Notes: generated by a model not told the origin, from the letters alone. DNA of 64,000 nucleotides from Actinomycetota bacterium (GCA_046728915.1 JBKPFQ010000060.1:5311-69310), one strand, 5' to 3'; shown: positions 31,084 through 50,112, counted from the stretch's first letter. Numbers and translations: made by a program.

Positions 31084-32658
31084 CTACTCGCAGAAGGGTC
31101 GCTCTTTCACCCGCTCGTCGCGCCCCTCGATGCCGGCGCATTGCGACAGCTGCTGGAGCCGTTCGTCGAGGTCAGCCTGCCCGGCATCCGTCGGGCAGCT
31201 CGCGATCGCTCCCCCGTGACAGAGGTTTCGCAGCTCGAAGGGGTCGCGCCTCAGGTCGTAGCGCTCGACTGCCAAGTCGTCGCGGCAGCCGCGCTTGGTC
31301 GCAATCGAGTGGTGCTCCACGTAGATGGACGTGCGGGTGCGGATCCCGTCGTACTGGCAGGTCTGGTACCGGCCCGGAGACCTGGCCTCATACTCCGTCA
31401 GCAGACCGCGATCATCCGGCCACTGGCCCGTACCGGTGACGAGCGACACGAGCGAGCGCCCGTCCATGGTCCGGCAAGCTCCCGCCGGCGGGCAGGGGCG
31501 GGCGTGCGCGAGGTCGAGGATCGTGGGCGCGAGGTCGATGTTGGCGACCGGCTCGTGCACCGCCCGAACGCCGCCGTAGCCGCGGGGCAGATCGATGACC
31601 AGCGGCAGCCGGAGGGCCTCGTCGTAGGGCAGCACCTTGCCTCTTGCGAGGCGGTGCTCGCCGTAGAACAGCCCGTTGTCAGAGGTGTAGATGAAGACCG
31701 TGTTGCTCAGCTCCCTGAGCCGCTTGAGAGCGTTGTAGACGGTCGCAACGCTGCGGTCGACCCCCACCAGCGATGCGAGGGCGCAGCGCCAGTGCCCCCT
31801 GACCTTCGCCCGCGTCGCATGGTCGACCCGGGGCGCACCTTGCAGGAATGCGGGCTTGTCGGCCATATGCCTCTCGTTGAACGATGGGGGGTGCCGGAGG
31901 GGCGTCTTCCGGAACGCGTCCACGTCGAGCGGGTCCGGCTTCGCGGCGCGAATCCCCCTGCCGCTGCACCGCCCCTCCTGATGGCCCCCAGACGTGTGAG
32001 GGGCGTGCTCGTCGAGTTCGAGGTAGAACGGCGCCCGGCGCGGCGCATATCGATTGATGGCGCTGACCGCGTTACGGGTGAGGACCCTGGCGATGTAGTC
32101 GCTGTCGCGGGTGCCGAAGTGGCTCCAGTCCCCGTTCCTCGAGAAAAAGTAGTCGTAGTAGCCGAATCTTCCGCCGACGACCGTCCGCCAGTCGCTCCAG
32201 CCGGGCGCGACGTCGGCGGGACGGTCGACGAAGCGCCAGTAGCCATTCAGGAACTTGCCGACGTGGATCGTGTTGTACCCGGCTTCCCGCAGCCAGACGG
32301 GCAGGACGTTGTCCTTGCCGGCGAGCGCGCGGTAGCCCCTGCTGTTCGAGAGCACCCGGTGGTTGTGCGCGTACTGGCCCGTGAGCAACGACGCGCGAGA
32401 CGGGCAGCACTGGGGGGTGGTGGCGATGTAGTCGCTGAACCTGGTCCCGGGCCGGGTGACGAGGCGCATCGTCTTCGGCATGACCTTGCCGTTGAACTGA
32501 CGGGCCGTCTGATCGTCCGTCTGGATCAGGACCACGTTCGGCCGTTGCGTCGCGGGGGCAGCCGAATTCGCTGCGGATGCGACCGCGGGAACCAGGGTGG
32601 CGACGAGGAGGACCGGCAAGACCACCGCGGTCCGGCTCCCGTGGCCTTCGATCGTCAC
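31084..32658 (-). CDS. Secreted Cys-type sulfatase 1 (GlcNAc-6-sulfatase-like)
   Basis: Signal peptide ...VLLVATLVPAVASAA. NVVLIQTDDQ metal site. FGly motif TPQCCPSRASLLTGQYAHNHRV. GKFLNGY. C-terminal ...CAGIEGRDERVKERPFCE. Confidence 0.85.
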   Translation of the reverse strand: MTIEGHGSRTAVVLPVLLVATLVPAVASAANSAAPATQRPNVVLIQTDDQTARQFNGKVMPKTMRLVTRPGTRFSDYIATTPQCCPSRASLLTGQYAHNHRVLSNSRGYRALAGKDNVLPVWLREAGYNTIHVGKFLNGYWRFVDRPADVAPGWSDWRTVVGGRFGYYDYFFSRNGDWSHFGTRDSDYIARVLTRNAVSAINRYAPRRAPFYLELDEHAPHTSGGHQEGRCSGRGIRAAKPDPLDVDAFRKTPLRHPPSFNERHMADKPAFLQGAPRVDHATRAKVRGHWRCALASLVGVDRSVATVYNALKRLRELSNTVFIYTSDNGLFYGEHRLARGKVLPYDEALRLPLVIDLPRGYGGVRAVHEPVANIDLAPTILDLAHARPCPPAGACRTMDGRSLVSLVTGTGQWPDDRGLLTEYEARSPGRYQTCQYDGIRTRTSIYVEHHSIATKRGCRDDLAVERYDLRRDPFELRNLCHGGAIASCPTDAGQADLDERLQQLSQCAGIEGRDERVKERPFCE

Positions 32659-32676
32659 CCCACCGCCCCGCCGAAC

Positions 32677-34872
32677 CTACTCCACCAGCGAGCGCCAGTC
32701 CGCTTCCGCCTCCGCCAGCGGCATCGTCAGCTCGGTCTCCGCGCCGGCGATCTCGATCGCCTCGCCGCCCATCTCGCCGATCACCAGGACGCTCACGGCG
32801 GCGCGCTCGCCCTGCCTGGCCAGGTCGCGCAGGGCATGTTCGGCGCCGGTGACGACGAAGCCGCCGGGCCCCTCGCCGAACAGCGCCGTCTCGCCGGACG
32901 TCCCCCGCAGCTCCACGAGCGGATCCAGGTCCGCCCGGACCCCCACGCCGGCTGCGATCGCGGACTCGGCGAGAGCGCAGGCGAGGCCGCCGTCGCTGAC
33001 GTCGTGGGCGGCGGTGATCCGACCGTCGCGCGCCGCGGCTCGGACGAACTCGATCGCCGCCAGGACCTCGTCGATCGCGACCCCCGGCAGGCCCCGGCCG
33101 AGGTCGCCGCGAAGCTTGGCGAGCTCGGACCCGGCGAGCGACGGCGCGAAAGGGCCCACCAGGGCGATCGCATCGCCCTCACTGGGGGCGATCCTCACCG
33201 CGCGCTCAGGATCGGGGAGCTCCCCCACCATTCCGACGACCGGCGTCGGGTAGATCGGGCCGGCGTCCGTCTCGTTGTAGAGCGAGACGTTGCCGCCAAC
33301 GACCGGGACATCGAGGGCGGCGCACGCATCGGCCAGTCCCTGCACCGACCGGTCCAGCTCCCACGCGACGTGCGGCTTCTCGGGGTTGCCGAAGTTGAGG
33401 CAGTTCGTGAGCCCCAGCGGCTCCGCGCCGACACAGGCGAGGTTCTGAGCGCACTCGAGCACGGCCTCGATGGTCCCGCGGTAGGGATCGCAGGCCACGC
33501 GACGGCCGTTGCCGTCGATCGCCACGGCGATCGCTCGGCCGCTCTCCGGGACGGACAGCACGGCCGCGTCCGCAGCCTCCGGGCGGCGCACCGTCCGCGA
33601 CCCCACGATCGAGTCGTACTGCTCGAACGCCCAGCGCTTCGAGGCGACGTTTGGGGCGGCGAGCAGCGCGCGCAGCACCTCGGAGCCAGTGGCGCCGGGG
33701 TCGAGCGAGGCGTTGTTTCCGTAGAGCCACGCGGTCGGTTCGGAGGGTTCGAGGTCGTACAGGGGGCAGGCATCGACGAGGACGGCCACCGGCGCCTCGC
33801 CGACGACCTCGCCGCCGGCGAGCACCCGGATACGTCCGGTGTCGGTGACCTCCCCGACCTGTGCGGCGCCCGTCTGCCAGCGATCGCACACGGCAAGCAC
33901 CTTGGGGAGGCGGTCGGGCTCAACCACGGCGAGCATCCGCTCCTGCGACTCGGAGATCATGATCTCGAACGGCTCCATGTCGGCCTCGCGAAGCGGAACG
34001 CGGTCGACGTCGATGTCCATGCCCACGCCGCCCGCGGAGGCCATCTCGGCCGAGGAGGACGTGAGCCCCGCGGCGCCGAGGTCCTGTAGGGAGATCAGGA
34101 GCCCCCGGTCCAGCAGCTCCAGGCAGCACTCCATGAGCTTCTTCTCCTCGAACGGGTCGCCGATCTGGACGCTCGGTCTCATCTCGGCACCCTCGGCGAG
34201 CTCCGCCGACGCGAGGACCGACGCGCCTCCGATGCCGTCACGGCCGGTCGACGCGCCCATCAGAACGATCGCGTTCCCGGGCCCCGTGGCGGCCGCCCGC
34301 ACCATCCGGTCGGACCGCGCGAGGCCGACGCACATCGCGTTCACGAGGCAGTTGTGCTCGTAGGGCGCCTCGAAGTAGATCTCCCCACCGACCGTTGGCA
34401 CGCCGATCGAGTTCCCGTAGTGGCCGATGCCGGCGACCACGTGCTCGAACAGGTAGCGCGAGCGCTCGGAGTCGAGCTCCCCGAATCGCAGGGAGTCGAG
34501 CACCGCGATCGGCCGCGCACCCAGAGCGAACACGTCGCGCAGGATCCCGCCGACGCCGGTGGCCGCGCCCTGGAAGGGCTCGACGGCGCTGGGGTGGTTG
34601 TGCGACTCGACCTTGAACGCGACCGCGTGTCCCCCGCCGACGTCCACAGCCCCGGCGTTCTCGCCGGGGCCCATCAGCACCCGGGGACCCTCCGTCGGCA
34701 GCCTCCGAAGCAGCTTCCGGGAGTGCTTGTAGGCGCAGTGCTCCGACCAGAGGAGCGAGAACATCGCGAGCTCGACCTCGTTGGGATCGCGGTCGACCAG
34801 CTCACAGATGTGCTCGAACTCGAAGTCGGTGAGGCCGAGCTCGCGGTGCCGGGACTCACTCGAGACGCTCAT
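32677..34872 (-). CDS. purL: Phosphoribosylformylglycinamidine synthase subunit PurL
   Basis: MSVSSESRHRELGLTDFEFEHI..., SEHCAYKHS, and VESHNHPSAVEPFQGAATG. ATG 34872. The listed 896-aa ORF has a 165-codon Arg/Ser-rich false N-terminus. Confidence 0.93.
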   Translation of the reverse strand: MSVSSESRHRELGLTDFEFEHICELVDRDPNEVELAMFSLLWSEHCAYKHSRKLLRRLPTEGPRVLMGPGENAGAVDVGGGHAVAFKVESHNHPSAVEPFQGAATGVGGILRDVFALGARPIAVLDSLRFGELDSERSRYLFEHVVAGIGHYGNSIGVPTVGGEIYFEAPYEHNCLVNAMCVGLARSDRMVRAAATGPGNAIVLMGASTGRDGIGGASVLASAELAEGAEMRPSVQIGDPFEEKKLMECCLELLDRGLLISLQDLGAAGLTSSSAEMASAGGVGMDIDVDRVPLREADMEPFEIMISESQERMLAVVEPDRLPKVLAVCDRWQTGAAQVGEVTDTGRIRVLAGGEVVGEAPVAVLVDACPLYDLEPSEPTAWLYGNNASLDPGATGSEVLRALLAAPNVASKRWAFEQYDSIVGSRTVRRPEAADAAVLSVPESGRAIAVAIDGNGRRVACDPYRGTIEAVLECAQNLACVGAEPLGLTNCLNFGNPEKPHVAWELDRSVQGLADACAALDVPVVGGNVSLYNETDAGPIYPTPVVGMVGELPDPERAVRIAPSEGDAIALVGPFAPSLAGSELAKLRGDLGRGLPGVAIDEVLAAIEFVRAAARDGRITAAHDVSDGGLACALAESAIAAGVGVRADLDPLVELRGTSGETALFGEGPGGFVVTGAEHALRDLARQGERAAVSVLVIGEMGGEAIEIAGAETELTMPLAEAEADWRSLVE

Positions 34873-34906
34873 TCGGGTTCCAGTATTCCGAGCCGAGCGG
34901 CGCCGC

Positions 34907-36073
34907 TCACCGCCCGCCACCCCGAATGCGGCGCGCGATGGAGCGCGGGAGCCGCGGCCTGATCCTCCACCACACGCTCGCCTCGATCCGCTGGAGCCGC
35001 CTGGTGCGCCTGCGAAGCGCCCTGGAGCGGCGCGCGAGCCGTCGCCTGACCCCCCGCGTATCGGCGGCCTGGCGCCGGTGCTTGGCCGCGCGGTGCGCCT
35101 GGGTCTGGATGTACCGGGTGATCGCGTACATCGCGTCGTCGCGCAGCTCGTCGGCCGTGGGCGCGCCGACGCCGGTCGGCGTCTCCACGGTGGTCGCCTC
35201 GCCGCCGAGTGGGTCCGCGCAGGCGGCCAGGTAGTCGCGGAAGCTTGTCTGCTTGACCAGCCAGCCCTCCTCGATGCCCCTCGCGACGGCGGCGTCGTCG
35301 AGCAGGATGCGCTCGAACACCTCCTCGAGGCGCCCCGTCTCGAGCGCGTCGCGGACCGCGCGCGCATCGGGATTTCGGTCGAGCTGCCCGTTGTCGCGCG
35401 CGATCTCGACCCGGTGGCGGTACTGGTCGAACGTTCGCACGGGGAAGTGGAGCACCCCGACCGGAAACGCCGGCGCGATCACGAGGTCGAGCGGGTCGTC
35501 CTCGCGATGCTCAGCGGCCGTACGGAGAACGGGCTTGCCGACCAACCCGCGGTACGGGTCGCCGCTCCAGATCTCCACCGGGTGCGGTCCCCGCAGGCTG
35601 ATGACGGGGTTGGCCCGATGGGCGGATTTGGCGGGTCGGCGAAACCGGGCCTCGCGCACGGTCATCCGCTCGGCGAACGGGCCACCGCCCGGCCGCGCCA
35701 CGAACTCCGTGCGCGGTGCGAGCACCATCCCGAACGGCTCTTCCACCATCCCCAGGGCGTCCTTGAGGTTTCCGGTGGCAGGCCACCAGAACTCGTCGGC
35801 GTCGTTGTGGATCACCCAGTCGGCGCCCATCTCCGAGGCGATGCGCGTGATCTCCTCCTCGCCGCCCCCCTTCATCTCGCGTATGCCGCCCGCGACGCGC
35901 TCGAGCCGCACCAGCCCCGCCCGCTCATAACGCTCCAGGATCTCGACCGTGCCGTCGGTGGACCCGGTGTCGACGATGACGAAGAAGTCGACGCCCTGCG
36001 CCCTGTGGTACCGCAGGTTGTCCTCGAGGATGTCCGCCTCGTCCCGGACCTTGTACACCATTCCCAGCCGCAC
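34907..36073 (-). CDS. GT-A-fold glycosyltransferase, paralog A (GT2 / Glyco_tranf_2_4-like) with Arg-rich tail
   Basis: MRLGMVYKVRDEADILEDNLRYHRAQGVDFFVIVDTGSTDGT..., and DxD block HNDADEFWWP. The tail is RRLARRSRALRRRTRRLQRIEASVWWRIRPRLPRSIARRIRGGGR. Confidence 0.7.
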   Translation of the reverse strand: MRLGMVYKVRDEADILEDNLRYHRAQGVDFFVIVDTGSTDGTVEILERYERAGLVRLERVAGGIREMKGGGEEEITRIASEMGADWVIHNDADEFWWPATGNLKDALGMVEEPFGMVLAPRTEFVARPGGGPFAERMTVREARFRRPAKSAHRANPVISLRGPHPVEIWSGDPYRGLVGKPVLRTAAEHREDDPLDLVIAPAFPVGVLHFPVRTFDQYRHRVEIARDNGQLDRNPDARAVRDALETGRLEEVFERILLDDAAVARGIEEGWLVKQTSFRDYLAACADPLGGEATTVETPTGVGAPTADELRDDAMYAITRYIQTQAHRAAKHRRQAADTRGVRRRLARRSRALRRRTRRLQRIEASVWWRIRPRLPRSIARRIRGGGR

Positions 36074-36158: not shown

Positions 36159-37697
36159 GTGGGCTGGGCCGGGCGGACCACCAAGACGACCGCGAGGTGG
36201 GCGGGCATCCTCGTGGGACTAGGCACGCTCGCGATCGGGCTCGCCGCGGCGCGCGCGCTCGGAGGCGGGAGTGCCGCGGCCGCCGCCAAGGAGCCGCCGA
36301 ACTTCCTGCTCATCCTCGCCGACGACCAGGCCCAGAACAGCTTCAAGCGCGCCTACATGCCGCGAACCTTCGACCGCATCGTCGACCGGGGCACGCGGTT
36401 TCGCGACGGCGTAGCGGCGCCGCCGCTCTGCTGCCCGGACCGCGCGGGGATCCTCACCGGCCGGTATCCGCACAACCACGGCGTCTTCTCGAACGACCCC
36501 GGATATCCGAGCCTCCGCGACCCGCAGGACACGCTCCCCGTGTGGCTCGACCGAGCCGGCTATCGGACGGGCTTCATCGGCAAGTACCTGAACCACTACA
36601 CCGATGTCGCCGGGGCCGCTCCGGCGCCGGGCTTCGATCGCTGGTTCGGGATGATGGGACTTCCGAGCTACTACGACTACAACGCCAGCAAGAACGGCAG
36701 GATCCGCCACTTCGGACACCGGCGCCGCGACTACTCCACGGACGTCCTGACGCGCAAGGCGAAGCTGTTCCTGAGACGAAGCTCGCACACGAGCTCCCCG
36801 TTCTTCCTCTGGATCGCCTACGAGGCGCCGCACGGATGGAAGTCCGACATCCATCCCTGCCGCAGGAAATCCTCCGCCGGACCGCCCGACCGGGCGTCCG
36901 TCCGCGCCGTAGAGAACGTCCCGATTCCCCGCCCTCCCTCCTACGACGAGCGCGACGTCTCCGACAAGCCGGCCGCGATCCGGGACCTCCCGCCTCTCGA
37001 CTACGCGGCGATCCAGCAGATCAAGAACGACTGGCACTGCGCGCTCGCGGCCCTGGGCGAGCTGGACAAGGGCGTGGGTCGCGTGATGGCGGAGCTCGAT
37101 CGTGACCGCGAGCTGCGGAACACGATCGTCCTCTACGTGTCCGACAACGGCTACTTCTTCGGCGAGCACCGGCGAGCGACCGGGAAGTCGGACATCTACG
37201 CGCCGGCGCTCAACGTCCCGTTCGCCGTCAAGGTCCCAGACGCCTACCGCCGTGGCTCTCGCGTCCGTGAGAGCAACGCTGTCGTCTCGAACCAGGACAT
37301 CCCCGCGACGCTGGTCGCCTACGCCGATCGGTACCTCCACGACGTTGCGACGTGTGACGGGACGGGCGACTGCCAGCGGATGGACGGCCGCAGCTTCGCC
37401 CCGCTCGTCGGCGGCCGGGGCAGCTGGCCGGAAGACCGCGGGGTGCTGGCAGAGATCGCCTCGAGCAGCCACCGCTACAGGGCGATCCGCACGCCCGACT
37501 ACGCGTATTCCGAGCTCGCGACGGGAGAGCGCGAGCTCTACGACCTGGGCGCGGACCCCTACGAGTTGCACAACGAGGCGGGCGCGCCGGGATACGCGGA
37601 GATCCAGCAGCGCCTCGCCGCGCGGCTCGCCCTGCTGCGCTCGTGCTCGGGCATCCGGGGACGGGACGCGCCCTCGGCGCGCCCCTTCTGCGAGTAG
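36159..37697 (+). CDS. Secreted Cys-type sulfatase 2
   Basis: Signal-like N-terminus (WAGILVGLGTLAIGLAAARA). NFLLILADDQ. APPLCCPDRAGILTGRYPHNHGV. GKYLNHY. C-terminal ...CSGIRGRDAPSARPFCE. Confidence 0.85.
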   Translation: MGWAGRTTKTTARWAGILVGLGTLAIGLAAARALGGGSAAAAAKEPPNFLLILADDQAQNSFKRAYMPRTFDRIVDRGTRFRDGVAAPPLCCPDRAGILTGRYPHNHGVFSNDPGYPSLRDPQDTLPVWLDRAGYRTGFIGKYLNHYTDVAGAAPAPGFDRWFGMMGLPSYYDYNASKNGRIRHFGHRRRDYSTDVLTRKAKLFLRRSSHTSSPFFLWIAYEAPHGWKSDIHPCRRKSSAGPPDRASVRAVENVPIPRPPSYDERDVSDKPAAIRDLPPLDYAAIQQIKNDWHCALAALGELDKGVGRVMAELDRDRELRNTIVLYVSDNGYFFGEHRRATGKSDIYAPALNVPFAVKVPDAYRRGSRVRESNAVVSNQDIPATLVAYADRYLHDVATCDGTGDCQRMDGRSFAPLVGGRGSWPEDRGVLAEIASSSHRYRAIRTPDYAYSELATGERELYDLGADPYELHNEAGAPGYAEIQQRLAARLALLRSCSGIRGRDAPSARPFCE

Positions 37698-38507
37698 CTA
37701 GGAGGCGGGCGCCAGCCGCCCCAGCAGCTCCGCGACCTCGCTCGCCGGCTCGGCGTCGCGCTCGGGCTGGACCAGGCTGTAACCGAACCGGTTGGCCCGC
37801 GCCTCGTAGCGACGCGCGAGCTCCTCGTTCTCACGCCGCCGAAACGGCCGGAGGCGGGCGTTCCAGCGTTTGAAGTACGCATCGTTGATGCCGCTGCGCG
37901 CCGGGAAGCTCGCTCCGGAGGGGTCGAGCCCCAACCGGTCCTGGATGCGCCCGACGACCCCCTGCGGGTCGGCCACGAAGTCCTCGTAGCGCACCAGCAT
38001 CAGCCGGCGAATCCGAGGAGCGTCCTCGAGAAAGATCTCGTGGCACACGAGCCAGTGTTCGATCAACGACTCGAGCGACGTCTCGCTCCACTTCTGGGTG
38101 GCGTAGGACACCGCGATCGGGTGACGCATGATCACGACGAAGCTGGCATCACCGAACAGCGCCTGCAGGAAGCGCAGCTTGAGCAGGTTCGGCGGCGACT
38201 TCTCGATCAGGACCCGCTTGTCCAGGTTCCAGTACTCGCCCCATTCGGCGAGCAGTCGATCGCGATTGGCGTCGGTCGCGAGGGTCGAGTTCTCGGTCAG
38301 GTGGCTGCGCTCGTCGAACCCGAACCTCCCGGTGCCGCCGAACTCCCGAGCGATGGGGTAGACGCTCTGCAGGAACTGTCCCTCGTTGGCGAGGGCCTCC
38401 GTCTTGCGAAACCCGCTCGCCTCCTGATGCTTCGCGATCGCGCGCGCGAGCAGGGTCGTCCCGCTTCGGTGCAATCCGCCGACGAAGACCAACTCGTGCT
38501 CGGCCAC
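37698..38507 (-). CDS. Sulfotransferase 1 (Sulfotransfer_3-like)
   Basis: GTG 38507. 5'-PSB GGLHRSGTTLLA and 3'-PB VIMRHPIAVSYA. Its stop codon directly abuts the sulfatase 2 stop (TAG|CTA). Confidence 0.75.
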   Translation of the reverse strand: MAEHELVFVGGLHRSGTTLLARAIAKHQEASGFRKTEALANEGQFLQSVYPIAREFGGTGRFGFDERSHLTENSTLATDANRDRLLAEWGEYWNLDKRVLIEKSPPNLLKLRFLQALFGDASFVVIMRHPIAVSYATQKWSETSLESLIEHWLVCHEIFLEDAPRIRRLMLVRYEDFVADPQGVVGRIQDRLGLDPSGASFPARSGINDAYFKRWNARLRPFRRRENEELARRYEARANRFGYSLVQPERDAEPASEVAELLGRLAPAS

Positions 38508-42864: not shown

Positions 42865-43543
42865 CGGCCTCGGGCGCCGACGCGGTGACGTAGGCCGCCG
42901 CGGACTCGAACAGGCGCAGGCCGTCCTCGGAGCCGCAGAGCGCGTCCACCGCGTGCTCGGGATGGGGCATGAGGCCCACGACGTTGCCACGCTCGTTTGC
43001 GATGCCGGCGATGTCGCGGGCCGATCCGTTGGGGTTGTGCCCGGGCGCGTAGCGCAGCACCACCCCGCCGCGGGCCTCAAGCGCGTCGAGGTGCTCCGGT
43101 GGCGCGAAGTAGCGGCCGGTCTGATGCTTTACGGGGATCGACAGGACGTCGCCGGGCTCGCAGTTCCGCGTGAAGGCGGTATCGGCGGTCTGGACCACGA
43201 CGTCGACCTGGCGGCAGGTGAATCGAAGCGACTCGTTCGTGAGCAGCGCTCCGGGCAGGAGCCCCGATTCGCACAGCACCTGAAAGCCGTTGCAGATCCC
43301 GAACACGGGGCCGCCGTCCGCGGCGTGCCCGGCCACGGCCCGCATCGCGGGCGCGAAGCGGGCGATGGCGCCGGCGCGCAGATAGTCGCCGTACGAGAAC
43401 CCTCCGGGCACGACCACGACGTCGATCTCGTCCAGGCTCTCCTCCTCGTGCCAGATCATCCGGGCGTCGCCGACCCGGCTGCACGCGGCCAGCGCGTCGC
43501 GGTCGTCGCAGGACCCGGGGAACTGGACGACGCCGAACCTCAT
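42854..43543 (-). CDS. purQ: Phosphoribosylformylglycinamidine synthase glutaminase subunit PurQ
   Basis: VVVPGGFSYGDYLR, catalytic GICNGFQVL, and MPHPEHA. Confidence 0.93.
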   Translation of the reverse strand: MRFGVVQFPGSCDDRDALAACSRVGDARMIWHEEESLDEIDVVVVPGGFSYGDYLRAGAIARFAPAMRAVAGHAADGGPVFGICNGFQVLCESGLLPGALLTNESLRFTCRQVDVVVQTADTAFTRNCEPGDVLSIPVKHQTGRYFAPPEHLDALEARGGVVLRYAPGHNPNGSARDIAGIANERGNVVGLMPHPEHAVDALCGSEDGLRLFESAAAYVTASAPEAVTA

Positions 43544-43764
43544 TTCGCGACCTCGATCTCGTAGTCCTCGATCAGCGGGTTCGCGAGGAGCTTCTCGCAG
43601 AGCTCCTCGAGCCGGTCGGGATCGTCGGTATCGAGCTCCACCAGTCGCCCGACCCTCACATGGGAAACGCCCTGGAATCCCAGCGCCGGCAGCGCCCCCT
43701 CGACCGCCTTGCCCTGGGGGTCGAGGATGCCCTCCTTCGGCCTGATCAGCACCTTGGCTCTCAC
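43540..43764 (-). CDS. purS: Phosphoribosylformylglycinamidine synthase subunit PurS
   Basis: 74 aa: KVLIRPKEGILDPQGKAVEGAL..., LANPLIEDYEIE. ATGA overlap with purQ. Confidence 0.9.
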   Translation of the reverse strand: MRAKVLIRPKEGILDPQGKAVEGALPALGFQGVSHVRVGRLVELDTDDPDRLEELCEKLLANPLIEDYEIEVAK

Positions 43765-43795: not shown

Positions 43796-44749
43796 TCAGT
43801 CCGCGGATGGCGCCAGCGCCCCGGCCGCGTCCAGCTGCGCCGCGAGCCCCGCCCGGAGGTCCGTCCGCGGCTGCCAGCCGAGCTCGGAGCGGATCCTCGT
43901 CGTGTCGGCGAGCGTTCGCTTGACGTCGCCCGGCGCCCGCTCCCCGTAGCGCACGTTCAGCGGGCGGCCGGCGAGCTCCTCGACCAGGGCGACGACGTCT
44001 CGAAGCGCCGACTCGCTCCCGCCGCCCACGTTGTAGGTAGCGCCGGCAGGCGCCTCGCGCATCGCCGCGATCGTCGCGCCGACCGCGTCGGCCACGAACG
44101 TGAAGTCCCGCGACTGGTTGCCGTCGCCGTAGATCTCGAACTCGCTTCCGCTCACGAGCGCCGCGACGAGGCGGCTGAAGGCCATGTCCGGGCGCTGGCG
44201 CGGCCCGTACACGGTGAAGTAGCGCAGCGCCACGTATTCGAGCGCGGCGTCGCGCGCGTGCGCGTCAGCCAGGTGCTCGCACGCGAGCTTGGTGACCCCG
44301 TAGGGGGAGATGGGTGAGGGCCTCGTGTCCTCGGGCGTGGGGTAGGCCAGTGCGTCGCCGTAGATGGACGACGAGGACGCCAGCACCAGGGGGATCCCCC
44401 GGCTGCTGGCGGCCCCGACGACGGCGTGCGTGGCGAGGATGTTGTCGGCGACGTAGGCGTCGAAGCCGGAGCCCCAGCTCGCCCGTACGCCGGGCCGAGC
44501 GGCCAGGTGGAAGACGCCATCAACGCCGTCCAGAGCCACGTTGGGGAGAGGCTCGGAGACGAGGTCCTGCTCGATCAGCGTGAAGCAGGGATGGGCGCGG
44601 GCGTCGCCAATTGCCGCCTCCTTCGCATCGCGCTCGTAGTAGTCGGTGAACGCGTCGATGCCCACGACATCGCAGCCCTCCGCCAACAGGGCGTCGGTGA
44701 GCGTCGAGCCGATGAACCCGGCGCAGCCGGTCACGAGGTACCGTGGCAT
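43796..44749 (-). CDS. NAD-dependent NDP-sugar epimerase/dehydratase (SDR)
   Basis: VTGCAGFIGS Rossmann motif, catalytic SPYGVTKLACE (YxxxK), and RYFTVYGPRQRPDMA. Confidence 0.85.
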   Translation of the reverse strand: MPRYLVTGCAGFIGSTLTDALLAEGCDVVGIDAFTDYYERDAKEAAIGDARAHPCFTLIEQDLVSEPLPNVALDGVDGVFHLAARPGVRASWGSGFDAYVADNILATHAVVGAASSRGIPLVLASSSSIYGDALAYPTPEDTRPSPISPYGVTKLACEHLADAHARDAALEYVALRYFTVYGPRQRPDMAFSRLVAALVSGSEFEIYGDGNQSRDFTFVADAVGATIAAMREAPAGATYNVGGGSESALRDVVALVEELAGRPLNVRYGERAPGDVKRTLADTTRIRSELGWQPRTDLRAGLAAQLDAAGALAPSAD

Positions 44750-44768
44750 TGGGGGAACTTAGCGCCCG

Positions 44769-46106
44769 CTAGCGGCCCAGCAGGGCGCCGACGCGCTTGC
44801 GCAGGCCGCGAACCCGGCGGCGCATGCGGCTCCAGGGCCGACCTCGCTCGGCCTTCAGCCGGTGGCGAAGCTCCTTCTTCCTTCGCGAGCCGCGCGCAAT
44901 GCGCTTGTTCTTCTGCTCGATGCGAGCCCGGGCCCGCTCGAGGTGGCGCCGAGCCTTGTCCCGCTGGCTGGTCGTTTCCTCGAGCTCCCCCTGGAGCGAC
45001 TGGATCCGCTCGCGGTTGCGGTCGCGCTGAACGCCGGTCCAGCGCGACGTGCGCCCCAGGAGCTGCATCGCGTCGAACTCGAGCTGGGCACGCTCGCGCT
45101 CGGCCTCGGCTGGACCCGGCTCCACCCGCAGGGTTCCCGGGCTACCGCCGTCAAGCGGGTCCGGGCAGTCCGGGAGCAGCCGCGCGAAGCGCTCGTCGCG
45201 CACCAGGTAGCCCGCCTCGATCCCCTCGCCGACCTCGTCGTCGTTCACGACGAGGTCGGCGTAGAGCTCCTCGAACCGGCCCTGCTCGTACAGCTCGCGC
45301 AGTCGCTTGAAGCGACCCCAGTCCGGATAGTGACCCTCGAAGATCGCCACCTCCGTGCGCCGCTTGAGCTGCTCAAAGGAGCGCACGGGGAAGTGCAGGA
45401 TCCGCAGCGGCCACATCGGCGCCCACACGAGCTTTGTCTCGTCCTCGAGCTGCTGCTCGTTGGAGGCGCCCCCCTCCCGGACCGAGCGGTGCACGGCACG
45501 GCCGGGCGGACGCAGGGTCGCGGCCACGTCGCCGTCCGGTCCCTCGAGGGCGACGTCGTGGGCGCCGCGGTCGAGGCTGACGACGTTCGGGAATGCTCGG
45601 TGAGCGACCTTGGGCTGCAGGCGGGAGCGCGCCTCGCGGAGAGTGAGGCGCTCGGCGAAGGTGCCCGGGCCGTCGGGCCGGCCCACGAACTCCACGCGCG
45701 GGGCGACGACGACGCCGTAACGGTCGGGGATCGAGCCGAGGGTGTCCTGAAGCGAGCCCTCGACCGGCAGCCAGAACTCGTCGGCGTCCGTGTGGATGAC
45801 CCAGTCCGCGTCGAGGTCCGTCGCCGCGATGCGCGCCATTCGCGTGAGCCATCCGGCGCCACGGATGCGGTAGTCGGTCCCGGGCTCGTCGATGACGGTG
45901 GCCAGGCCGGCGTCGACGTAGCGGCTCAGGATCTCCCGCGTCTCGTCGGTCGACCCGTTGTCGGTGACGACGAAGTGCGCCACGCCGAGCGCGTGGTGGA
46001 AGCGCAGGTTCGCCTCGATCACGTCGCCCTCGTCCCGCACCTTGAGTGCCATGACGAGCCTGGGGTCCGGGTCTGAGGGTCCGGCGTCGGCCAAGGGACG
46101 CGCCAT
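44769..46106 (-). CDS. GT-A-fold glycosyltransferase, paralog B, with long coiled-coil/Arg-Lys tail
   Basis: LVMALKVRDEGDVIEANLRFHHALGVAHFVVTDNGSTDET and HTDADEFWLP. The C-terminal 120 aa are heptad-like and basic (…RIQSLQGELEETTSQRDKARRHLERARARIEQKNKRIARGSRRKKELRHRLKAER…). Alternative start at 46052. Confidence 0.7.
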   Translation of the reverse strand: MARPLADAGPSDPDPRLVMALKVRDEGDVIEANLRFHHALGVAHFVVTDNGSTDETREILSRYVDAGLATVIDEPGTDYRIRGAGWLTRMARIAATDLDADWVIHTDADEFWLPVEGSLQDTLGSIPDRYGVVVAPRVEFVGRPDGPGTFAERLTLREARSRLQPKVAHRAFPNVVSLDRGAHDVALEGPDGDVAATLRPPGRAVHRSVREGGASNEQQLEDETKLVWAPMWPLRILHFPVRSFEQLKRRTEVAIFEGHYPDWGRFKRLRELYEQGRFEELYADLVVNDDEVGEGIEAGYLVRDERFARLLPDCPDPLDGGSPGTLRVEPGPAEAERERAQLEFDAMQLLGRTSRWTGVQRDRNRERIQSLQGELEETTSQRDKARRHLERARARIEQKNKRIARGSRRKKELRHRLKAERGRPWSRMRRRVRGLRKRVGALLGR

Positions 46107-46148: not shown

Positions 46149-46979
46149 ATGAAGCTGGTCATGACGCTGCTCGTGCGCGACGAGCAGGACATCATCGCCC
46201 AGCACCTCGACTTCCACCTCGCGCAGGGGGTGGACGAGGTGATCGTCACCGACAACGGGTCGGAGGACGCGACGCTCGAAATCCTGCGGGGGTACGAGTC
46301 GCGGGGAGTGGTCCGGGTCATCCACGAGCCGAGCGACGACTACTCCCAGGGCAAGTGGGTGACGCGGATGGCGCGCATGGCCGCGAGCGAGCACGGCGCC
46401 GACTGGGTCATCAACAGCGACGCCGACGAGTTCTGGTGGCCGCGCTCCGGCACGCTCGCCTCCACGTTCGCGGGGCTTTCCGACGGGGTCGGCGTCGTCG
46501 TGGCCCGGCGCACGAACTTCGTCCCGCAGCCGGAGGACGACCAGCCGTTCTGGGAGCGGATGACGGTCCGCGAGCGCGAGTCGCTCAACCCCGTCGGAAA
46601 GCCGCTGCCGCCCAAGCTCGCCCACCGGGCGCATCCGGAGATCACCGTGGTGCAGGGCAATCACCGCGTGCAGGGCCCGGATCTCGGCGAGCGCCTCGAC
46701 GACGGCACCGTCGAGATCCTCCACTTCCCCATGCGCTCCTACGCGCAGTTCGAGAACAAGATCGTCAAGGGCGGGCAGGCGTACGCTCGAAACCGCGAGC
46801 TGCCGGAGAACGTGGGCCGTACGTGGCGGCGGCTGTACGAGGTCTGGCAGCGCGGCGAGCTTCCGCAGCATTACGCCGAGATCGTGGTCTCCGACCCGGC
46901 AAGCGAGGACCTGGTCAGCGATACGCGGCTGCGGGACTACCTACGTGAGCTGCGCCTGGGCGCGCCCGCGAGCGAGTAG
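46149..46979 (+). CDS. GT-A-fold glycosyltransferase, paralog C (catalytic domain only)
   Basis: MKLVMTLLVRDEQDIIAQHLDFHLAQGVDEVIVTDNGSEDAT and NSDADEFWWP. It lacks the tail. Confidence 0.7.
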   Translation: MKLVMTLLVRDEQDIIAQHLDFHLAQGVDEVIVTDNGSEDATLEILRGYESRGVVRVIHEPSDDYSQGKWVTRMARMAASEHGADWVINSDADEFWWPRSGTLASTFAGLSDGVGVVVARRTNFVPQPEDDQPFWERMTVRERESLNPVGKPLPPKLAHRAHPEITVVQGNHRVQGPDLGERLDDGTVEILHFPMRSYAQFENKIVKGGQAYARNRELPENVGRTWRRLYEVWQRGELPQHYAEIVVSDPASEDLVSDTRLRDYLRELRLGAPASE

Positions 46980-46982
46980 GGG

Positions 46983-48197
46983 CTATTCCGCAGCCTCGTC
47001 CTGCGGGGGTGGCGGAGGCGGCGCGAACTCGTCCTGGCCCTCCCCGCGTCGCGTCACCCGCCGAACGAGCTTGAGCAGCCGCCTGCCGAGCGTCCTGTTC
47101 AGCTTCGCGCGAACCCGGTCGAGCGTCTCGTGCAGCTCGTCGATTCGACTCCTGGTGCGATCGAGCTGGAGCATCGTGAAGCGCTGCGTCCGCGTCATGA
47201 GGCGCATCGCGTCGTACTCCACCTCGGCCCGCTCGCGATCCAGCGCCTCGGCGTCGGGCTCCACGCGCACGGACCCGGCAGGCGCGTCGCTCAACGGATC
47301 GGGGCACTGCGGCAGGAGCTTCGCGAAGCGCTCGTCGCGCACCAGCTCCCCGTCGCGGATGCCCTCCTCGACCTGCGAGTCGTCCCAGACGAGCTCGGCG
47401 TAGAGCTCCTCGAGGCGGTCAGCCTCGTAGTGGCGCCGCAGGCGGCGGAAACGACCCGTGTCCCGCCAGCCGCCGTGCTGGATGAAGATCTCGGTCCGCT
47501 TGCGGAACTGGTCGAACGAGCGCAGCGGGAAGTGGAAGATGCGAAGCGGATGGGTCGGCGCCCAAATCAGCTGGATCTCCGGCCGGTCGCCGTCCTCCTC
47601 AGCCGCGGTTCCGCGCGTCCCGCGGTGGACCATCCGCCCGGGCGGGCGCAGCGCGAGCCACAGATCGCGTGCGGGTCCCGCCGAAGCCACCTCGTGCGTT
47701 TGGCTGATGACGACGGCGTCCGGGTCGGCGCGGTGAGCGACCTTCGGTTGCAGGCTGCCGAGGGGCTCGCGGAAGATCATCCGCTCCGCGAACGAACCGG
47801 GGCCGTCCGGCCGGGCGACGAACTCGGCACGGGGAGCCACCACGGATCCGTATCGCTCCGGGATGTTCTCGAAGGCCTCCTTGAGGGTCCCCTGCACCGG
47901 CCACCACAGCTCGTCGGCGTCGTCGTGGAACACCCAGTCGGCCTCGAACTCCGCGGCCGCGAGCCGGGCCATCCGGGTGGTCCAGTTCTCCTCGTTGTCG
48001 CGGAGCGTGCCGGCCTCGATGCGGATGACGTGGGCCAGGCCCGCCTTCGCGTAGCGGTCGAGGATCTCGGACGTGCCGTCGACCGAACCGTTGTCGGTGA
48101 CGACGAAGAAATCGACCCCCAACGCTCGGTGATAACGCAGGTTGTCCTCGAGGATGTCGGCCTCGTCGCGGACCTTCAGGGTCATCACGAGCCGCAT
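46983..48197 (-). CDS. GT-A-fold glycosyltransferase, paralog D, with coiled-coil tail and poly-Pro end
   Basis: MRLVMTLKVRDEADILEDNLRYHRALGVDFFVVTDNGSVDGT and HDDADELWWP. The tail is ...RSRIDELHETLDRVRAKLNRTLGRRLLKLVRRVTRRGEGQDEFAPPPPPPQDEAAE. Confidence 0.7.
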   Translation of the reverse strand: MRLVMTLKVRDEADILEDNLRYHRALGVDFFVVTDNGSVDGTSEILDRYAKAGLAHVIRIEAGTLRDNEENWTTRMARLAAAEFEADWVFHDDADELWWPVQGTLKEAFENIPERYGSVVAPRAEFVARPDGPGSFAERMIFREPLGSLQPKVAHRADPDAVVISQTHEVASAGPARDLWLALRPPGRMVHRGTRGTAAEEDGDRPEIQLIWAPTHPLRIFHFPLRSFDQFRKRTEIFIQHGGWRDTGRFRRLRRHYEADRLEELYAELVWDDSQVEEGIRDGELVRDERFAKLLPQCPDPLSDAPAGSVRVEPDAEALDRERAEVEYDAMRLMTRTQRFTMLQLDRTRSRIDELHETLDRVRAKLNRTLGRRLLKLVRRVTRRGEGQDEFAPPPPPPQDEAAE

Positions 48198-48246
48198 CGC
48201 GCCCCCTCAACGACCATCGGACTCAGACCTCCCGTGCTGGTCGCCC

Positions 48247-49065
48247 TCAGCCCGTTCCCACCGGCGCGGCGGTCCCCTCGACGGGCTGCCGCGGCGAGCT
48301 CGTGCTCGGCCACAGCGAGAGGTCGAGCTCGGGGCACAGCTCGGCGAGCCGTAGGGAGTCCTCGCGATAGCGCGCGGCGAGCTCCTCGCTAACCACGCCC
48401 GCCAGCCCCGGAGTCTGGCGCCCCGCCTGCTTGTGTTGGTGGAGGCGCTCGGGGAACTCGTCAGGCGGATCGACTTCCAGGAAGCGGCACGTTCGCTTCA
48501 TCTCCGCGACGGGCTCGGTGATACAGCGCTCGAACTGGAGAACGAGGACCTGCTCGCGCGGGAAGAGGTCGAGGACGCGACGGAGCTGCTCGAAGTAGAA
48601 GCCGCGCCAGATCGCGTCGTTCACCTGCGGGAGCAGCACGCGCGTTCCGCGTTCCTCCGCCTTGCGCTCGAGACGCGCGATCGCGGAGCGGTACCGGGAC
48701 ACCGGATCGCGGAGCAGGACCAGCAGGCGCGCGTTGGGGGCGGCCCTTCGAAGCAGCGGGATCGCCCAATGATCGGCCAGGTATCGAGGTGTCCACTCGC
48801 CGACGATGTTCCCGGGGCGGCGCGGGAACAGGGAGGCGTACTCGGCGGCGATGTCGTCGGGCGCGTCGCCCCGCCAGTAGCGGTCGAAGTAGTGGACCTC
48901 CTTGCCGAGCGGCGAGCGCTGGATGCCCGGATTGCGACGCATCGAGTCGTACCACCAGCTCGTCCCGCAGCGCTGGGCTCCGATTCCCACGTAGTCGGGC
49001 GGACCGGTCGTCCAGCCCTCGGGGCATTCCGGGACCTGCAGCGGCGCGTCCCAGGGCAGGTTCAT
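48247..49065 (-). CDS. Sulfotransferase 4 (carbohydrate-type, paralog of sulfotransferase 3)
   Basis: ATG 49065 (MNLPWDAPLQV...). GIGAQRCGTSWWY (5'-PSB) and VLLRDPVSRYRSA (3'-PB). The upstream 305 codons of the listed ORF are antisense shadow of sulfotransferase 5. Confidence 0.75.
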   Translation of the reverse strand: MNLPWDAPLQVPECPEGWTTGPPDYVGIGAQRCGTSWWYDSMRRNPGIQRSPLGKEVHYFDRYWRGDAPDDIAAEYASLFPRRPGNIVGEWTPRYLADHWAIPLLRRAAPNARLLVLLRDPVSRYRSAIARLERKAEERGTRVLLPQVNDAIWRGFYFEQLRRVLDLFPREQVLVLQFERCITEPVAEMKRTCRFLEVDPPDEFPERLHQHKQAGRQTPGLAGVVSEELAARYREDSLRLAELCPELDLSLWPSTSSPRQPVEGTAAPVGTG

Positions 49066-49167
49066 CGGCTTGGCCAAGGCGAGGAAAGGGTAGTGATCGG
49101 GACGCCGTCCGCACGCATGATGCCGCCGCCGGGCGCCGCGGTCTGCCCTGCCAGAATACGGCGCCCC

Positions 49168-50112
49168 ATGGCCCTCGAGTCGATCAAGCGCGCGCTCAAG
49201 GGGCGCCGGCGGGCGACCGATCGCCCTCCCGCGCCCTTCGTCGTCGGCGTTTCCAGATCCGGGACGACCCTGCTGCGGCTGATGCTGGATGCCCATCCGG
49301 ACCTGACGATCCCGGCCGAGACCCACTTCGTCCCGATGGTCGCGAACGTGTGCGACGAGCTCGCCGAGCAGGGTGCCTCCAGCGAGACGATCCGGGAGCG
49401 CGCGCTGGCCACCATGACCGGCCACCCGCGCTGGGGGGACTTCCTCCTCGACCCCGAGGAGGTCCGCGGGCGGATGGAGCAATACGACCCGATCACGACG
49501 AGCGACGCCATCCGCGCGTTCTACGAGGCGTGCGCCGCCCAGCAGGGCAAACCGCGGTGGGGGGACAAGTCGCCGCCGTACACCTACAAGGCGCCGCGCG
49601 TCCAGGCGGCACTGCCCGAGGCCCACTTCATCCACATCATCCGCGACGGTCGCGACGTCGCGTTGTCGCTCGGGGAGGTCAGCTGGGGAACCGACGACAT
49701 CACCGAGGCGGCGAAGAAGTGGGTGACCGAGCTCCGCAAGGCCCGCAGGCGCGCCAGGTCCCTGGCCAAGGGGACCTATATGGAGGTCCACTACGAGGAC
49801 CTGGTGACGGACGCCGAGCCGGTGCTTCGGAGGATCACGGAACACGTCGACCTTCGCTGGGATGACGCGATGCTCGACTATCCGAGGCACGCCCAGGAAC
49901 GGATGCGCGGCGAGATGGAGCGCACCCTGAAGCCGCTGGGCGGCGGCACGATCACCGCCGAGGAGCGGACGCGCCAGCACCAACTCCTCTTCGAGGCGCC
50001 GAGCCCCAGCCGCGCCGGGCGCTGGCGCACCGACATGTCCGCGGAGAACCGCCGGGCGTTCGAGGCCGTCGCGGGGCCGCTGCTGAAGAAGCTGGGCTAC
50101 GAAGTCGAGTAA
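49168..50112 (+). CDS. Sulfotransferase 5 (Sulfotransfer_3 / Stf0-like)
   Basis: ATG 49168 (MALESIKRALKG...). VVGVSRSGTTLLR (5'-PSB) and IHIIRDGRDVALS (3'-PB). Confidence 0.75.
   Translation: MALESIKRALKGRRRATDRPPAPFVVGVSRSGTTLLRLMLDAHPDLTIPAETHFVPMVANVCDELAEQGASSETIRERALATMTGHPRWGDFLLDPEEVRGRMEQYDPITTSDAIRAFYEACAAQQGKPRWGDKSPPYTYKAPRVQAALPEAHFIHIIRDGRDVALSLGEVSWGTDDITEAAKKWVTELRKARRRARSLAKGTYMEVHYEDLVTDAEPVLRRITEHVDLRWDDAMLDYPRHAQERMRGEMERTLKPLGGGTITAEERTRQHQLLFEAPSPSRAGRWRTDMSAENRRAFEAVAGPLLKKLGYEVE

Follow-up and report, generated by a model that had tools for sequence, protein, structure and literature searches.

The DNA analysed here is a 64-kb stretch (the window; ~70% G+C) from an Actinomycetota bacterium (GCA_046728915.1, JBKPFQ010000060.1:5311-69310), in which positions 31084–50112 carry a probable sulfated-glycan biosynthesis module lodged in the gaps of a purine operon. 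Gene calling by third-position GC content (GC3) gives 17 genes in this interval, comprising three purine genes (purL, purQ and purS) and 14 others: five sulfotransferases (ST1–ST5), four paralogous GT-A-type glycosyltransferases (GT-A1–GT-A4), one additional, unclassified glycosyltransferase (the orphan), a nucleotide-sugar epimerase and three sulfatases (A, B and C). An earlier reading of the DNA by itself, called here the first-pass annotation, had listed the same 14 non-purine genes, and GC3-based calling places every one of them at identical coordinates. The module has three unusual traits. It combines five divergent sulfotransferases with two uncharacterised glycosyltransferase families, it contains secreted enzymes resembling N-acetylglucosamine-6-sulfatases (GlcNAc-6-sulfatases) within a biosynthetic locus, and its insertion into purine-operon gaps is kept across a deep uncultured clade. 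Independent pipelines call the same genes with the same lengths in other assemblies (538, 234, 312, 305, 229, 74, 317 and 445 residues). Furthermore, separate assemblies of different samples yielded at least eight contigs that encode an identical orphan protein among the same neighbours, with unchanged gene lengths, which rules out an assembly artefact.

Pfam annotation of the flanks shows that the region from 26.7 to 56.4 kb (26732–56411) is one compact purine cluster, mainly on the minus strand, in which the genes of the entire purine pathway are gathered (purH, N, F, L, Q, S, C, B, E and D). The cluster starts with purH, purN, a SnoaL-like gene and purF, which is followed by sulfatase A and purL. 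The gap between purL and purQ holds GT-A1, sulfatase B, ST1, sulfatase C, ST2, ST3 and the orphan. The epimerase, GT-A2, GT-A3, GT-A4, ST4 and ST5 follow purQ and purS and lead to purC, and the cluster ends with a gene for an unknown protein, CsoR and P450 genes, and then purB, purE and purD. The 14 genes thus occupy three gaps of the operon (purF–purL, purL–purQ and purS–purC), and no intergenic gap between purH and purD exceeds 88 bp. purL (32677–34872, minus strand; Pfam AIRS, AIRS_C and FGAR-AT_linker) is flanked by inserted genes at distances of 18 bp and about 7–34 bp, depending on the start codon, and purQ and purS (42854–43764, minus strand; purQ matches GATase_5 at 1.3e-34, and purS is called in relatives) lie between two inserted blocks. 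This weaving of the module into a single compact purine operon is its most unusual structural feature and was absent from the first-pass annotation. More generally, unrelated genes are lodged in four gaps of the purine cluster, several of them on the opposite strand. GT-A3, the orphan, ST5 and sulfatase B are separated from their divergent or convergent neighbours by only 15–49 bp, so the promoters of the opposite-strand inserts must lie within neighbouring genes. An Rfam scan finds no riboswitch or other RNA element inside the purine cluster. A sigma-70 promoter scan returned zero promoters and is uninformative, and a terminator scan gave two intragenic terminator-like sites, fewer than in shuffled sequences and none convincing inside the cluster.

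The five sulfotransferases all carry both motifs for binding of 3′-phosphoadenosine-5′-phosphosulfate (PAPS), as had been claimed for them. The 5′-phosphosulfate-binding motifs are HRSGTT, HRSGTS, PRAGTT, QRCGTS and SRSGTT, and the 3′-phosphate-binding motifs are MRHPIAVS, IRNPVAVRRS, LRDPIERSWS, LRDPVSRYRS and IRDGRDVALS. Four of the proteins exceed the Pfam gathering score. ST1 (269 residues; 37698–38507, minus strand) matches Sulfotransfer_3 (PF13469, 2.4e-24) and shows weak similarity to TPST2 and the CurM sulfotransferase in the Protein Data Bank (PDB) and to the NCBIfam model of NoeE. ST5 (339 residues; 49093–50112, plus strand; PF13469, 1.4e-38) is TPST/CurM-like and in the PDB most similar to protein-tyrosine sulfotransferases (1.6e-16), followed by a polyketide sulfotransferase (5e-12). 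ST3 (312 residues; 40973–41911, minus strand; Sulfotransfer_1 and Sulfotransfer_3 at 1.2e-15 and 1.3e-10) and ST4 (276 residues; 48247–49077, minus strand; Sulfotransfer_1, PF00685, 3e-13) are the two proteins with an RDPxxRxxS motif, which had been taken as a sign of the heparan sulfate (HS) type. Both do match HS 3-O-sulfotransferases, behind the uncharacterised bacterial sulfotransferase 3rnl: the values for ST3 are 2e-12 for 3rnl and 2e-6 for 3-OST-1, and those for ST4 are 1.6e-13 for 3rnl and 4e-11 for 3-OST-3A1. The fifth protein, ST2 (234 residues; 40258–40962, minus strand), is divergent and scores 17.8 bits against the Sulfotransfer_3 cut-off of 27 (E-value 0.004); the profile of its family gives only noise against PDB sequences. 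Its assignment comes from hhalign, which aligns it with the ST5/ST1 family at 94.5% probability (E-value 8e-8), with GMHRSGTS and IGVIRNPVAV on the two PAPS motifs. ST3 and ST4 are 28% identical, and since no two of the five exceed this value, they represent five families and not recent duplicates.

The four GT-A paralogs match Glyco_tranf_2_4 (PF13704) with 57–60 bits against a cut-off of 27.5 and are 36–55% identical to each other; the profile, a DxD motif and the fold of the GT-A3 model identify them as GT-A enzymes. GT-A3 (276 residues; 46149–46979, plus strand; 4.6e-16) is the short, very conserved and GT92-like member. Its catalytic-looking residues that are invariant among homologs of other phyla are R10, E12, H23, D35, S38, D40, D91-A-D-E, K156, H159, H172, H192 and R196. 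A profile match in the PDB to GmaR (2.6e-9) covers only the N-terminal nucleotide-binding half, and the GT-A3 model (predicted local distance difference test score, pLDDT, 77.9) retrieves ThuS/SunS, SpsA, WrtF, GalS1 and TarS in Foldseek. GT-A1 (388 residues; 34907–36073, minus strand; 3.5e-15), which is 36–47% identical to the other three, GT-A2 (445 residues; 44769–46106, minus strand; 7.8e-16) and GT-A4 (404 residues; 46983–48197, minus strand; 1.3e-15), the latter two 55% identical to each other, carry 120–170 additional C-terminal residues. These tails are helical and highly basic and end in an Arg/Trp-rich amphipathic segment. The last 120 residues contain 29 Arg and Lys in the Arg-rich tail of GT-A1 and 38 in the long tail of GT-A2, which ends in a W/R-rich helix; the amphipathic helix of GT-A4, RTLGRRLLKLVRRVTRRG, has a hydrophobic moment of 0.88. 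The helices may resemble the membrane anchors or rulers of O-antigen enzymes.

The orphan (305 residues; 41947–42864, plus strand) has an invariant DxD motif (FIDGDAFP, D83-x-D85). It has no sequence match in Pfam, NCBIfam or the PDB, and its family profile gives only noise against the PDB. Its AlphaFold model is reliable (pLDDT 88.6), and all top Foldseek matches are GT-A enzymes (LARGE1, the GT24 domain of UGGT, GT8 and chondroitin synthase; E-values 7e-6 to 3e-4), at template modelling (TM) scores of only 0.3–0.46. The protein singled out earlier for its DxD motif is thus an unclassified GT-A-fold glycosyltransferase that matches no Pfam or CAZy-like family. Clustering at 50% gives 1150 representatives of the orphan family, which include fusions to Sulfotransfer_2 (twice, in two different orders), GT8 and a methyltransferase. 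The GT-A3 and orphan families are two uncharacterised glycosyltransferase families.

The epimerase (317 residues; 43796–44749, minus strand) belongs to the short-chain dehydrogenases/reductases of the nucleotide-sugar 4-epimerase type (Pfam Epimerase, 2.3e-49). Over its full length, its best PDB match is the UDP-glucuronic acid 4-epimerase of Bacillus cereus (UGAepi; 6zl6/6zld/6zll, 1.3e-65; PMC11519531), followed by MoeE5 (4e-60). Both rank ahead of GalE, WbpP and UXS, and the protein is probably a UDP-glucuronate 4-epimerase. Its sequence contains RPDMA, which may correspond to part of the carboxylate-binding residues (Arg185 and the Thr/Ser network) of the B. cereus enzyme.

Sulfatase A (524 residues; 31084–32658, minus strand; Pfam Sulfatase, 6e-39) fills the purF–purL gap, whereas sulfatases B (512 residues; 36159–37697, plus strand; 1.2e-49) and C (538 residues, or 527 in other pipelines; 38560–40176, minus strand; 2.4e-40) lie between purL and purQ. 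All three have the SGSH_C domain in addition to the Sulfatase domain (PF00884, 135–170 bits against a cut-off of 25). Their formylglycine (FGly) motifs are of the Cys type and read CCPSRASLLTG, CCPDRAGILTG and CCPSRASLITG at residues 84, 91 and 91. With the DDQ, GK[FY] (GKF in A), SDNG and GEH metal-binding and catalytic motifs present in all three, they are type I (S1) sulfatases. The only N-terminal hydrophobic segments in the module are in these proteins (Kyte–Doolittle 1.8–2.4; 2.35 in sulfatase A) and are followed by AxA-like sites, while the glycosyltransferases, sulfotransferases, epimerase and orphan all remain below 1.55. By this heuristic, which is not a dedicated signal-peptide predictor, the sulfatases have signal-like N-termini and the other enzymes do not, in line with the topology given in the first-pass annotation; the signature CCP(S/D)RA..LTG.Y.HNH that it reported is likewise present in the translations. 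The number of cysteines is even (12 in A and 8 in B), as expected for disulfide-bonded secreted proteins. All three sulfatases share a C-x-G-I-x-[GS]-R-D ... R-P-[FY]-C-E tail, and several cysteine positions common to them are absent from the Bacteroides S1_11 enzymes; the tail may be a clade-specific disulfide-stabilised element.

Sulfatases A and C are 58% identical. The best PDB match of both B (2.5e-32) and C (4e-36) is the GlcNAc-6-sulfatase BT4656 (5g2v), with the mucin-desulfating sulfatase 7p24 second for C, and many of the more than 7000 homologs of sulfatase C carry the automatic Joint Genome Institute (JGI) name N-acetylglucosamine-6-sulfatase. GlcNAc-6-sulfatase activity is found in the SulfAtlas subfamilies S1_6 (human GNS, Sulf1/2) and S1_11 (bacterial) (PMC5066984). 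BT4656 belongs to S1_11, whose members act in the exo mode from the non-reducing end and include L-galactose-6-sulfatases (PMC10154612). The GlcNAc-6-sulfatase signature claimed at first agrees with the nearest solved relatives of B and C and with the JGI names, but the alignments are domain-wise and the subfamily has a second activity, so GlcNAc-6-sulfate is a lead to the substrate and not a result. Choline- and arylsulfatase identities were rejected, as the corresponding NCBIfam equivalogs score about 100 bits against cut-offs of 433–481.

To place the module among relatives, species-representative genomes were scanned, which gave 529 confirmed relatives; 80 loci were fetched and annotated with the window proteins. 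GT-A3 has more than 7000 homologs, mostly in soil metagenomes, some of them labelled Solirubrobacterales. In an uncultured Solirubrobacterales clade, about 31 metagenome-assembled genomes at the species level, with GT-A3 73–90% identical, retain the pur-interleaved layout. The co-localisation of these enzyme families, read at first from a single genome, recurs in these relatives. The consensus order is purL–(ST2)–orphan–purQ–purS–GT-A1–(epimerase)–GT-A2–GT-A3–(GT-A4)–ST4–ST5–purC. The orphan and GT-A2 are each found in 30 of the 31 loci, ST4 in 28, the P450 in 26 and ST5 in 23, and ST2 is present in essentially all genomes of the clade. The layout extends, in part, to a more distant lineage (L084; orphan 49% identical), where the purL–purQ gap contains the orphan, seven sulfotransferases, two GT4 enzymes and a methyltransferase and no sulfatase. 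The insert of this lineage (L084:9138-18616) adjoins an ATP-binding cassette (ABC) importer, a DUF3179 protein, a CDP-alcohol phosphatidyltransferase and a DedA/VTT protein.

The glycosyltransferase and sulfotransferase core is conserved in the clade; the sulfatases number zero to three and occupy two fixed slots. In the window, sulfatase C is part of a co-directional ST3–ST2–sulfatase C–ST1 array with gaps of 10–81 bp. The block of sulfatase B, ST1, sulfatase C and ST3 is confined to the closest relatives, and ST1 occurs only in a sub-clade whose purL–purQ gap usually also holds the sulfatase B/C block: sulfatases B and/or C are in the same block at eight of the ten loci that carry ST1 or ST3 and have this stretch visible. 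One or two sulfatases fill the purL–purF slot in L015, L017, L019, L022–L024, L085 and L086, and homologs of 55–57% identity are found in this slot in other species. No sulfatase is present in the purF–purL slot of L026 and L028 or in the purL–purQ gap of L004, the closest species.

One relative (L003, the same as L012 on chromosome OY969725.1) carries an additional pair of genes that separates the epimerase from GT-A2 (L003:5793-8482). They encode a 442-residue membrane GT2 of the processive-synthase type (Glyco_tranf_2_3/Glyco_trans_2_3) and a UDP-GlcNAc 2-epimerase-like protein. This pair was considered as the missing polymerase, or as a route to a Nod-factor-like GlcNAc oligomer, and was dropped as a core part because it occurs in one species only.

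The association of these glycosyltransferases with sulfotransferases is not limited to the clade. GT-A3 homologs, 46–62% identical, were examined at 49 loci in other phyla, counting as neighbours the genes within two positions; they come from Acidimicrobiales, Gammaproteobacteria, Planctomycetota, Acidobacteriota, Bacteroidota, Eremiobacterota and Campylobacterota. At 16 of the 49 loci, the homolog has a sulfotransferase no more than 4 kb away. The 139 neighbouring genes include 17 recognised sulfotransferases (Sulfotransfer_2, _3 and _4), seven further Glyco_tranf_2_4 glycosyltransferases, five pyruvyl transferases and three GDP-mannose dehydratases. In Acidimicrobiales (L045), the GT-A3 homolog is accompanied by four sulfotransferases, a GT2 and an ABC ATPase of the Wzt type that has the glycan-binding domain Wzt_C, the single instance of such an exporter component beside a homolog; the locus includes an ST2-like protein. 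The cultured Gilvimarinus algae combines the homolog with a GT4, a second Glyco_tranf_2_4 enzyme, a sulfotransferase and two O-methyltransferases. ST2 homologs, too, adjoin GT-A3 homologs, in Acidimicrobiales and Acidobacteria.

Taken together, the enzymes suggest that the 14 genes supply those steps of a pathway that soluble enzymes carry out in the cytoplasm, leading to a sulfated, probably uronic-acid-containing glycan or glycoconjugate, along with secreted sulfatases that would act on the product after its export; we give this an even chance of being correct. The epimerase would convert UDP-glucuronic acid to UDP-galacturonic acid. The chain would be built on the inner side of the membrane by the orphan and the four GT-A paralogs, all five of them GT-A-fold transferases; there GT-A1, GT-A2 and GT-A4 are probably held by their Arg/Trp-rich amphipathic C-terminal helices. 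Up to five PAPS-dependent sulfotransferases of different families would then sulfate the glycan at different positions before it leaves the cytoplasm. Because soluble PAPS-dependent sulfotransferases can act only there, the glycan would have to be completed in the cytoplasm, which fits an ABC-transporter route, such as the Wzt/Wzt_C neighbour in L045 suggests, or a small cytoplasmic product. The finished chain would be exported by machinery encoded elsewhere, most likely a Wzm/Wzt-type ABC transporter. Outside the cell, in most lineages, the Sec-exported FGly sulfatases would strip part of the sulfate, either as trimming or editing or to remove a terminal cap. The placement of the genes within a compact purine operon suggests a constitutive product, and hence probably a structural component of the cell envelope.

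Several observations weigh against this reading. Genes for a priming transferase, a lipid-carrier enzyme, an exporter, a polymerase, PAPS synthesis and an FGly-generating enzyme (FGE or anSME) are all absent from the 64-kb window; apart from the lipid-carrier enzyme, the first-pass annotation had pointed to the same missing components. A complete assembly cluster would combine a priming transferase with a flippase and polymerase, an ABC exporter or a membrane synthase; the locus has neither export nor priming genes and is thus not a complete polysaccharide cluster. Its parts are unevenly kept within the clade, with the epimerase in only 20 of the 31 loci and zero to three sulfatases per species, and the organisms are all uncultured. 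Some relatives point to other acceptors: the nearest solved relatives of the GT-A family include the protein and peptide glycosyltransferases GmaR, ThuS and SunS, and ST1 and ST5 resemble protein-tyrosine and polyketide sulfotransferases. Outside the clade, about two-thirds of the GT-A3 homologs have no sulfotransferase nearby, and sulfatases are missing from the neighbourhood of these modules with one exception among the 49 loci. In many Gammaproteobacteria a GT-A3 homolog (about 50–55% identity) stands directly upstream of mnmG/gidA with no sulfotransferase nearby, so the family is not tied to sulfation everywhere. Examples of this arrangement are L041, L044, L046, L053, L055, L059, L069 and L070, at about position 10000 of each locus. 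The editing of a glycan by sulfation and desulfation, around which the first-pass annotation had built its proposal, is plausible, but because the sulfatases are variable and rarely stand beside the glycosyltransferase–sulfotransferase module outside the clade, they are accessory and editing does not define the system.

The same variability can be explained by a scenario in which the glycosyltransferases and sulfotransferases make a sulfated glycoconjugate and the sulfatases are unrelated scavengers of environmental sulfate esters (such as organosulfur compounds in soil, or sulfated glycans from fauna, fungi or algae), brought together by history in gaps that tolerate insertion. We consider this unlikely on balance, though a serious competitor. 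It would account for the gaps of L004, L026 and L028, for the near-absence of sulfatases from the modules of other phyla and for the catabolic roles of the characterised relatives, BT4656 and the mucin-desulfating sulfatase; P450, CsoR and SnoaL-like genes, likewise lodged in the purine operon, show that the gaps accept other cargo. What it explains poorly is the position of sulfatase C inside a tight co-directional sulfotransferase array and the recurrence of sulfatases B and/or C in the ST1/ST3 block. Sulfatase homologs down to 55% identity remain within the supercluster, and the partners to be expected at a catabolic or scavenging locus (a glycoside hydrolase, a lyase, a sugar transporter or a regulator of sulfate starvation) do not appear alongside them in the Pfam annotation of the window.

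A further alternative concerns the acceptor. The GT-A enzymes might O- or S-glycosylate a surface or secreted protein, on which TPST-like sulfotransferases would sulfate tyrosines or sugars and the sulfatases would later act. That GmaR, the Listeria flagellin O-GlcNAc transferase, is the best solved sequence relative of the GT-A family, that fold comparison ranks two peptide S-glycosyltransferases, ThuS and SunS, highest, that ST5 and ST1 are closest in the PDB to protein-tyrosine sulfotransferases and that the locus has no lipid-carrier or exporter genes all fit this idea, but the glycosyltransferase matches are at the superfamily level only (the N-terminal half of GmaR; TM-scores of 0.4–0.5). 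Moreover, ST3 and ST4 resemble carbohydrate sulfotransferases, homologous loci contain Wzt/Wzt_C, pyruvyl transferases, GT4 enzymes and sugar-nucleotide enzymes typical of polysaccharide clusters, and the locus has no conserved candidate substrate protein, which leaves a protein or peptide acceptor improbable. A wholly cytoplasmic pathway to a sulfated glycoside or sulfoglycolipid, similar in its logic to mycobacterial sulfolipids or sulfated Nod factors and possibly using the P450, would be consistent with biosynthetic enzymes that are all soluble, a window with no polymerase or exporter, the conservation of the P450 beside purC and the weak matches of ST1 and ST5 to NoeE and polyketide sulfotransferases. 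Five glycosyltransferases and five sulfotransferases are, however, many for a small glycoside, scaffold enzymes (polyketide synthase, nonribosomal peptide synthetase, terpene or acyl transferases) are absent, the P450 and CsoR genes form a separate plus-strand unit, and the distant homologous loci resemble polysaccharide clusters; we regard a small product as quite improbable. A functional tie to purine metabolism, either through modification of a molecule derived from a purine nucleotide or nucleoside or through coupling of PAPS and 3′-phosphoadenosine-5′-phosphate (PAP) turnover to purine supply, is suggested by a layout that a deep clade and a lineage further away have both retained, and by the operon-like packing. 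It is very improbable because in other phyla clusters of the same glycosyltransferase and sulfotransferase families contain no pur genes; the enzymes show no resemblance to families that modify nucleosides, and the unrelated P450, CsoR and SnoaL genes sit in gaps of the same operon.

A sulfated glycan assembled in the cytoplasm and trimmed outside, the reading that we favour, has partial counterparts among known systems. ABC-dependent O-antigen-type and cell-wall pathways (Wzm/Wzt) are the nearest match to the proposed assembly route, as they build and decorate the glycan in the cytoplasm with soluble or peripheral GT-A enzymes and as L045 carries Wzt/Wzt_C, but the window lacks wzm, wzt, a priming glycosyltransferase and a ligase. 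The xss cluster for synechan of Synechocystis PCC 6803 similarly combines several glycosyltransferases with sulfotransferases of different subfamilies, with sulfation presumed to take place on the cytoplasmic side before export (PMC8205485). Unlike the locus described here, xss is on a megaplasmid, has its own Wzx, Wzy, polysaccharide co-polymerase and regulators, and contains two sulfotransferases, eight glycosyltransferases and no sulfatase (PMC8205485); the present locus has five sulfotransferases, up to three secreted sulfatases, other glycosyltransferase families and no export or regulatory genes, and is part of a chromosomal purine operon. Rhizobial and mycobacterial systems (NodH/NoeE, LpsS/KpsS and Stf0-3) share the PAPS-dependent sulfation of glycoconjugates in the cytoplasm, but they have one sulfotransferase per locus, modify lipo-oligosaccharide or trehalose-lipid acceptors and are not paired with secreted sulfatases; the NoeE matches of ST1 and ST5 score far below the cut-off (41 bits against 500).

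On the side of desulfation, the S1_11 enzymes of Bacteroides and Pedobacter (BT4656, BT3177, BT1628, Phep_2827 and MdsA) are the best solved relatives of the sulfatases, and they too are FGly-dependent, exported and equipped with an SGSH_C-type subdomain. They operate, however, in catabolic polysaccharide-utilisation loci with lyases, hydrolases and transporters (PMC10154612), whereas the enzymes of this locus stand among biosynthetic glycosyltransferases and sulfotransferases, are of the Cys type and not the Ser type, and have extra conserved cysteine pairs and the ...RP[FY]CE C-terminus. The logic of sulfating during synthesis and removing 6-O-sulfate outside is that of eukaryotic HS editing, in which Golgi sulfotransferases are followed by Sulf1/Sulf2 (S1_6). 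ST3 and ST4 are similar to HS 3-O-sulfotransferases, and the sulfatases share the CCPSRAS-LTG-Y-HNH signature. This similarity is at the family level only: the locus has no EXT polymerase or N-deacetylase/N-sulfotransferase, the best solved relative of the sulfatases is an exo-acting bacterial S1_11 enzyme and not an endosulfatase, and several relatives dispense with the sulfatases.

Sulfated polysaccharides are regarded as rare in bacteria, and recent papers describe them as known essentially from cyanobacteria (PMC8205485, PMC13390465). The first-pass annotation had called such a system undescribed in Actinomycetota. This holds for the lineage, as the literature searched on sulfatases of Solirubrobacterales and on sulfotransferases of Thermoleophilia yielded nothing relevant; for the phylum as a whole it needs a caveat, since a sulfated exopolysaccharide cluster, wps-1, has been predicted in Actinoplanes missouriensis (PMC13390465, 2026), the sole further proposal of this kind that was found for Actinomycetota. 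That cluster also contains two sulfotransferases of different families in a glycan cluster of an actinomycete, but it follows the classical Wzx/Wzy/Wzz organisation, includes a GH26 and lacks a sulfatase, and its sulfation is predicted without chemical proof (PMC13390465). No sulfated sugar polymer is yet known to have been demonstrated chemically in Actinomycetota.

If the favoured reading holds, a widespread soil actinomycete lineage, whose marker glycosyltransferase has more than 7000 metagenomic homologs, constitutively makes a heavily sulfated glycan. This would bear on soil organic sulfur in the form of sulfate esters, on the phosphate-free negative charge of Gram-positive envelopes and on the sources of glycosaminoglycan-like material, and the pairing of secreted sulfatases with a biosynthetic cluster would give bacteria a counterpart of the editing of sulfate outside the cell. 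The packing of accessory genes, on both strands, into purine-operon gaps is an odd architecture in its own right. A more specific version, which we put forward as a doubtful extension, is that the abundant, uncultured soil Solirubrobacterales clade constitutively produces a phosphate-free, anionic, glycosaminoglycan-like envelope polymer of galacturonic acid and multiply sulfated hexosamine, sulfated in the cytoplasm, exported by an ABC transporter and remodelled by exo-6-O-sulfatases or relieved by them of an "export cap". If true, this would be the first bacterial biosynthetic sulfation–desulfation cycle, analogous to the Sulf-type editing of animals, and it would employ two glycosyltransferase families that lack a characterised member.

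Other genes are lodged in or near the purine cluster. A SnoaL-like (polyketide-cyclase-fold) gene (28985–29464, minus strand) is wedged between purN and purF and overlaps purN by one base. Between purC and purB, positions 51029–53325 on the plus strand encode an unknown 197-residue protein, a metal-sensing repressor of the CsoR type and a cytochrome P450; the first of these contains an HHYRHSD motif (HxHxD, metallo-beta-lactamase-like) and has no Pfam match. In some relatives, a secreted 439-residue protein that is absent from the window is encoded beside purC (L003:15489-16808; two copies in L034, at about 15460-18145). Besides a signal peptide it contains repeated units of the form G-x-A-x-F-x-W, and it matches no Pfam family. 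Just past purD (57471–60092, minus strand), a stretch of lower GC content (0.67) encodes an 873-residue protein whose N-terminus is signal-like and whose repeats are of the BNR/Asp-box sialidase-like type and, at the C-terminus, of the RTX calcium-binding type; it could be a secreted glycan-active or surface protein.

According to Pfam, the remainder of the window is housekeeping in nature and encodes 2-oxoacid dehydrogenase complexes, thiamine genes, an Mrp antiporter, LigD and ClpB. Two adjacent genes at 16576–19412 (minus strand; 720 and 194 residues) have a good coding signal and no Pfam match. The only Rfam matches in the window are a tRNA (21048–21118, plus strand) and a thiamine pyrophosphate (TPP) riboswitch (14156–14266, plus strand; 64.8 bits), which is located upstream of thiO–thiS–thiG.

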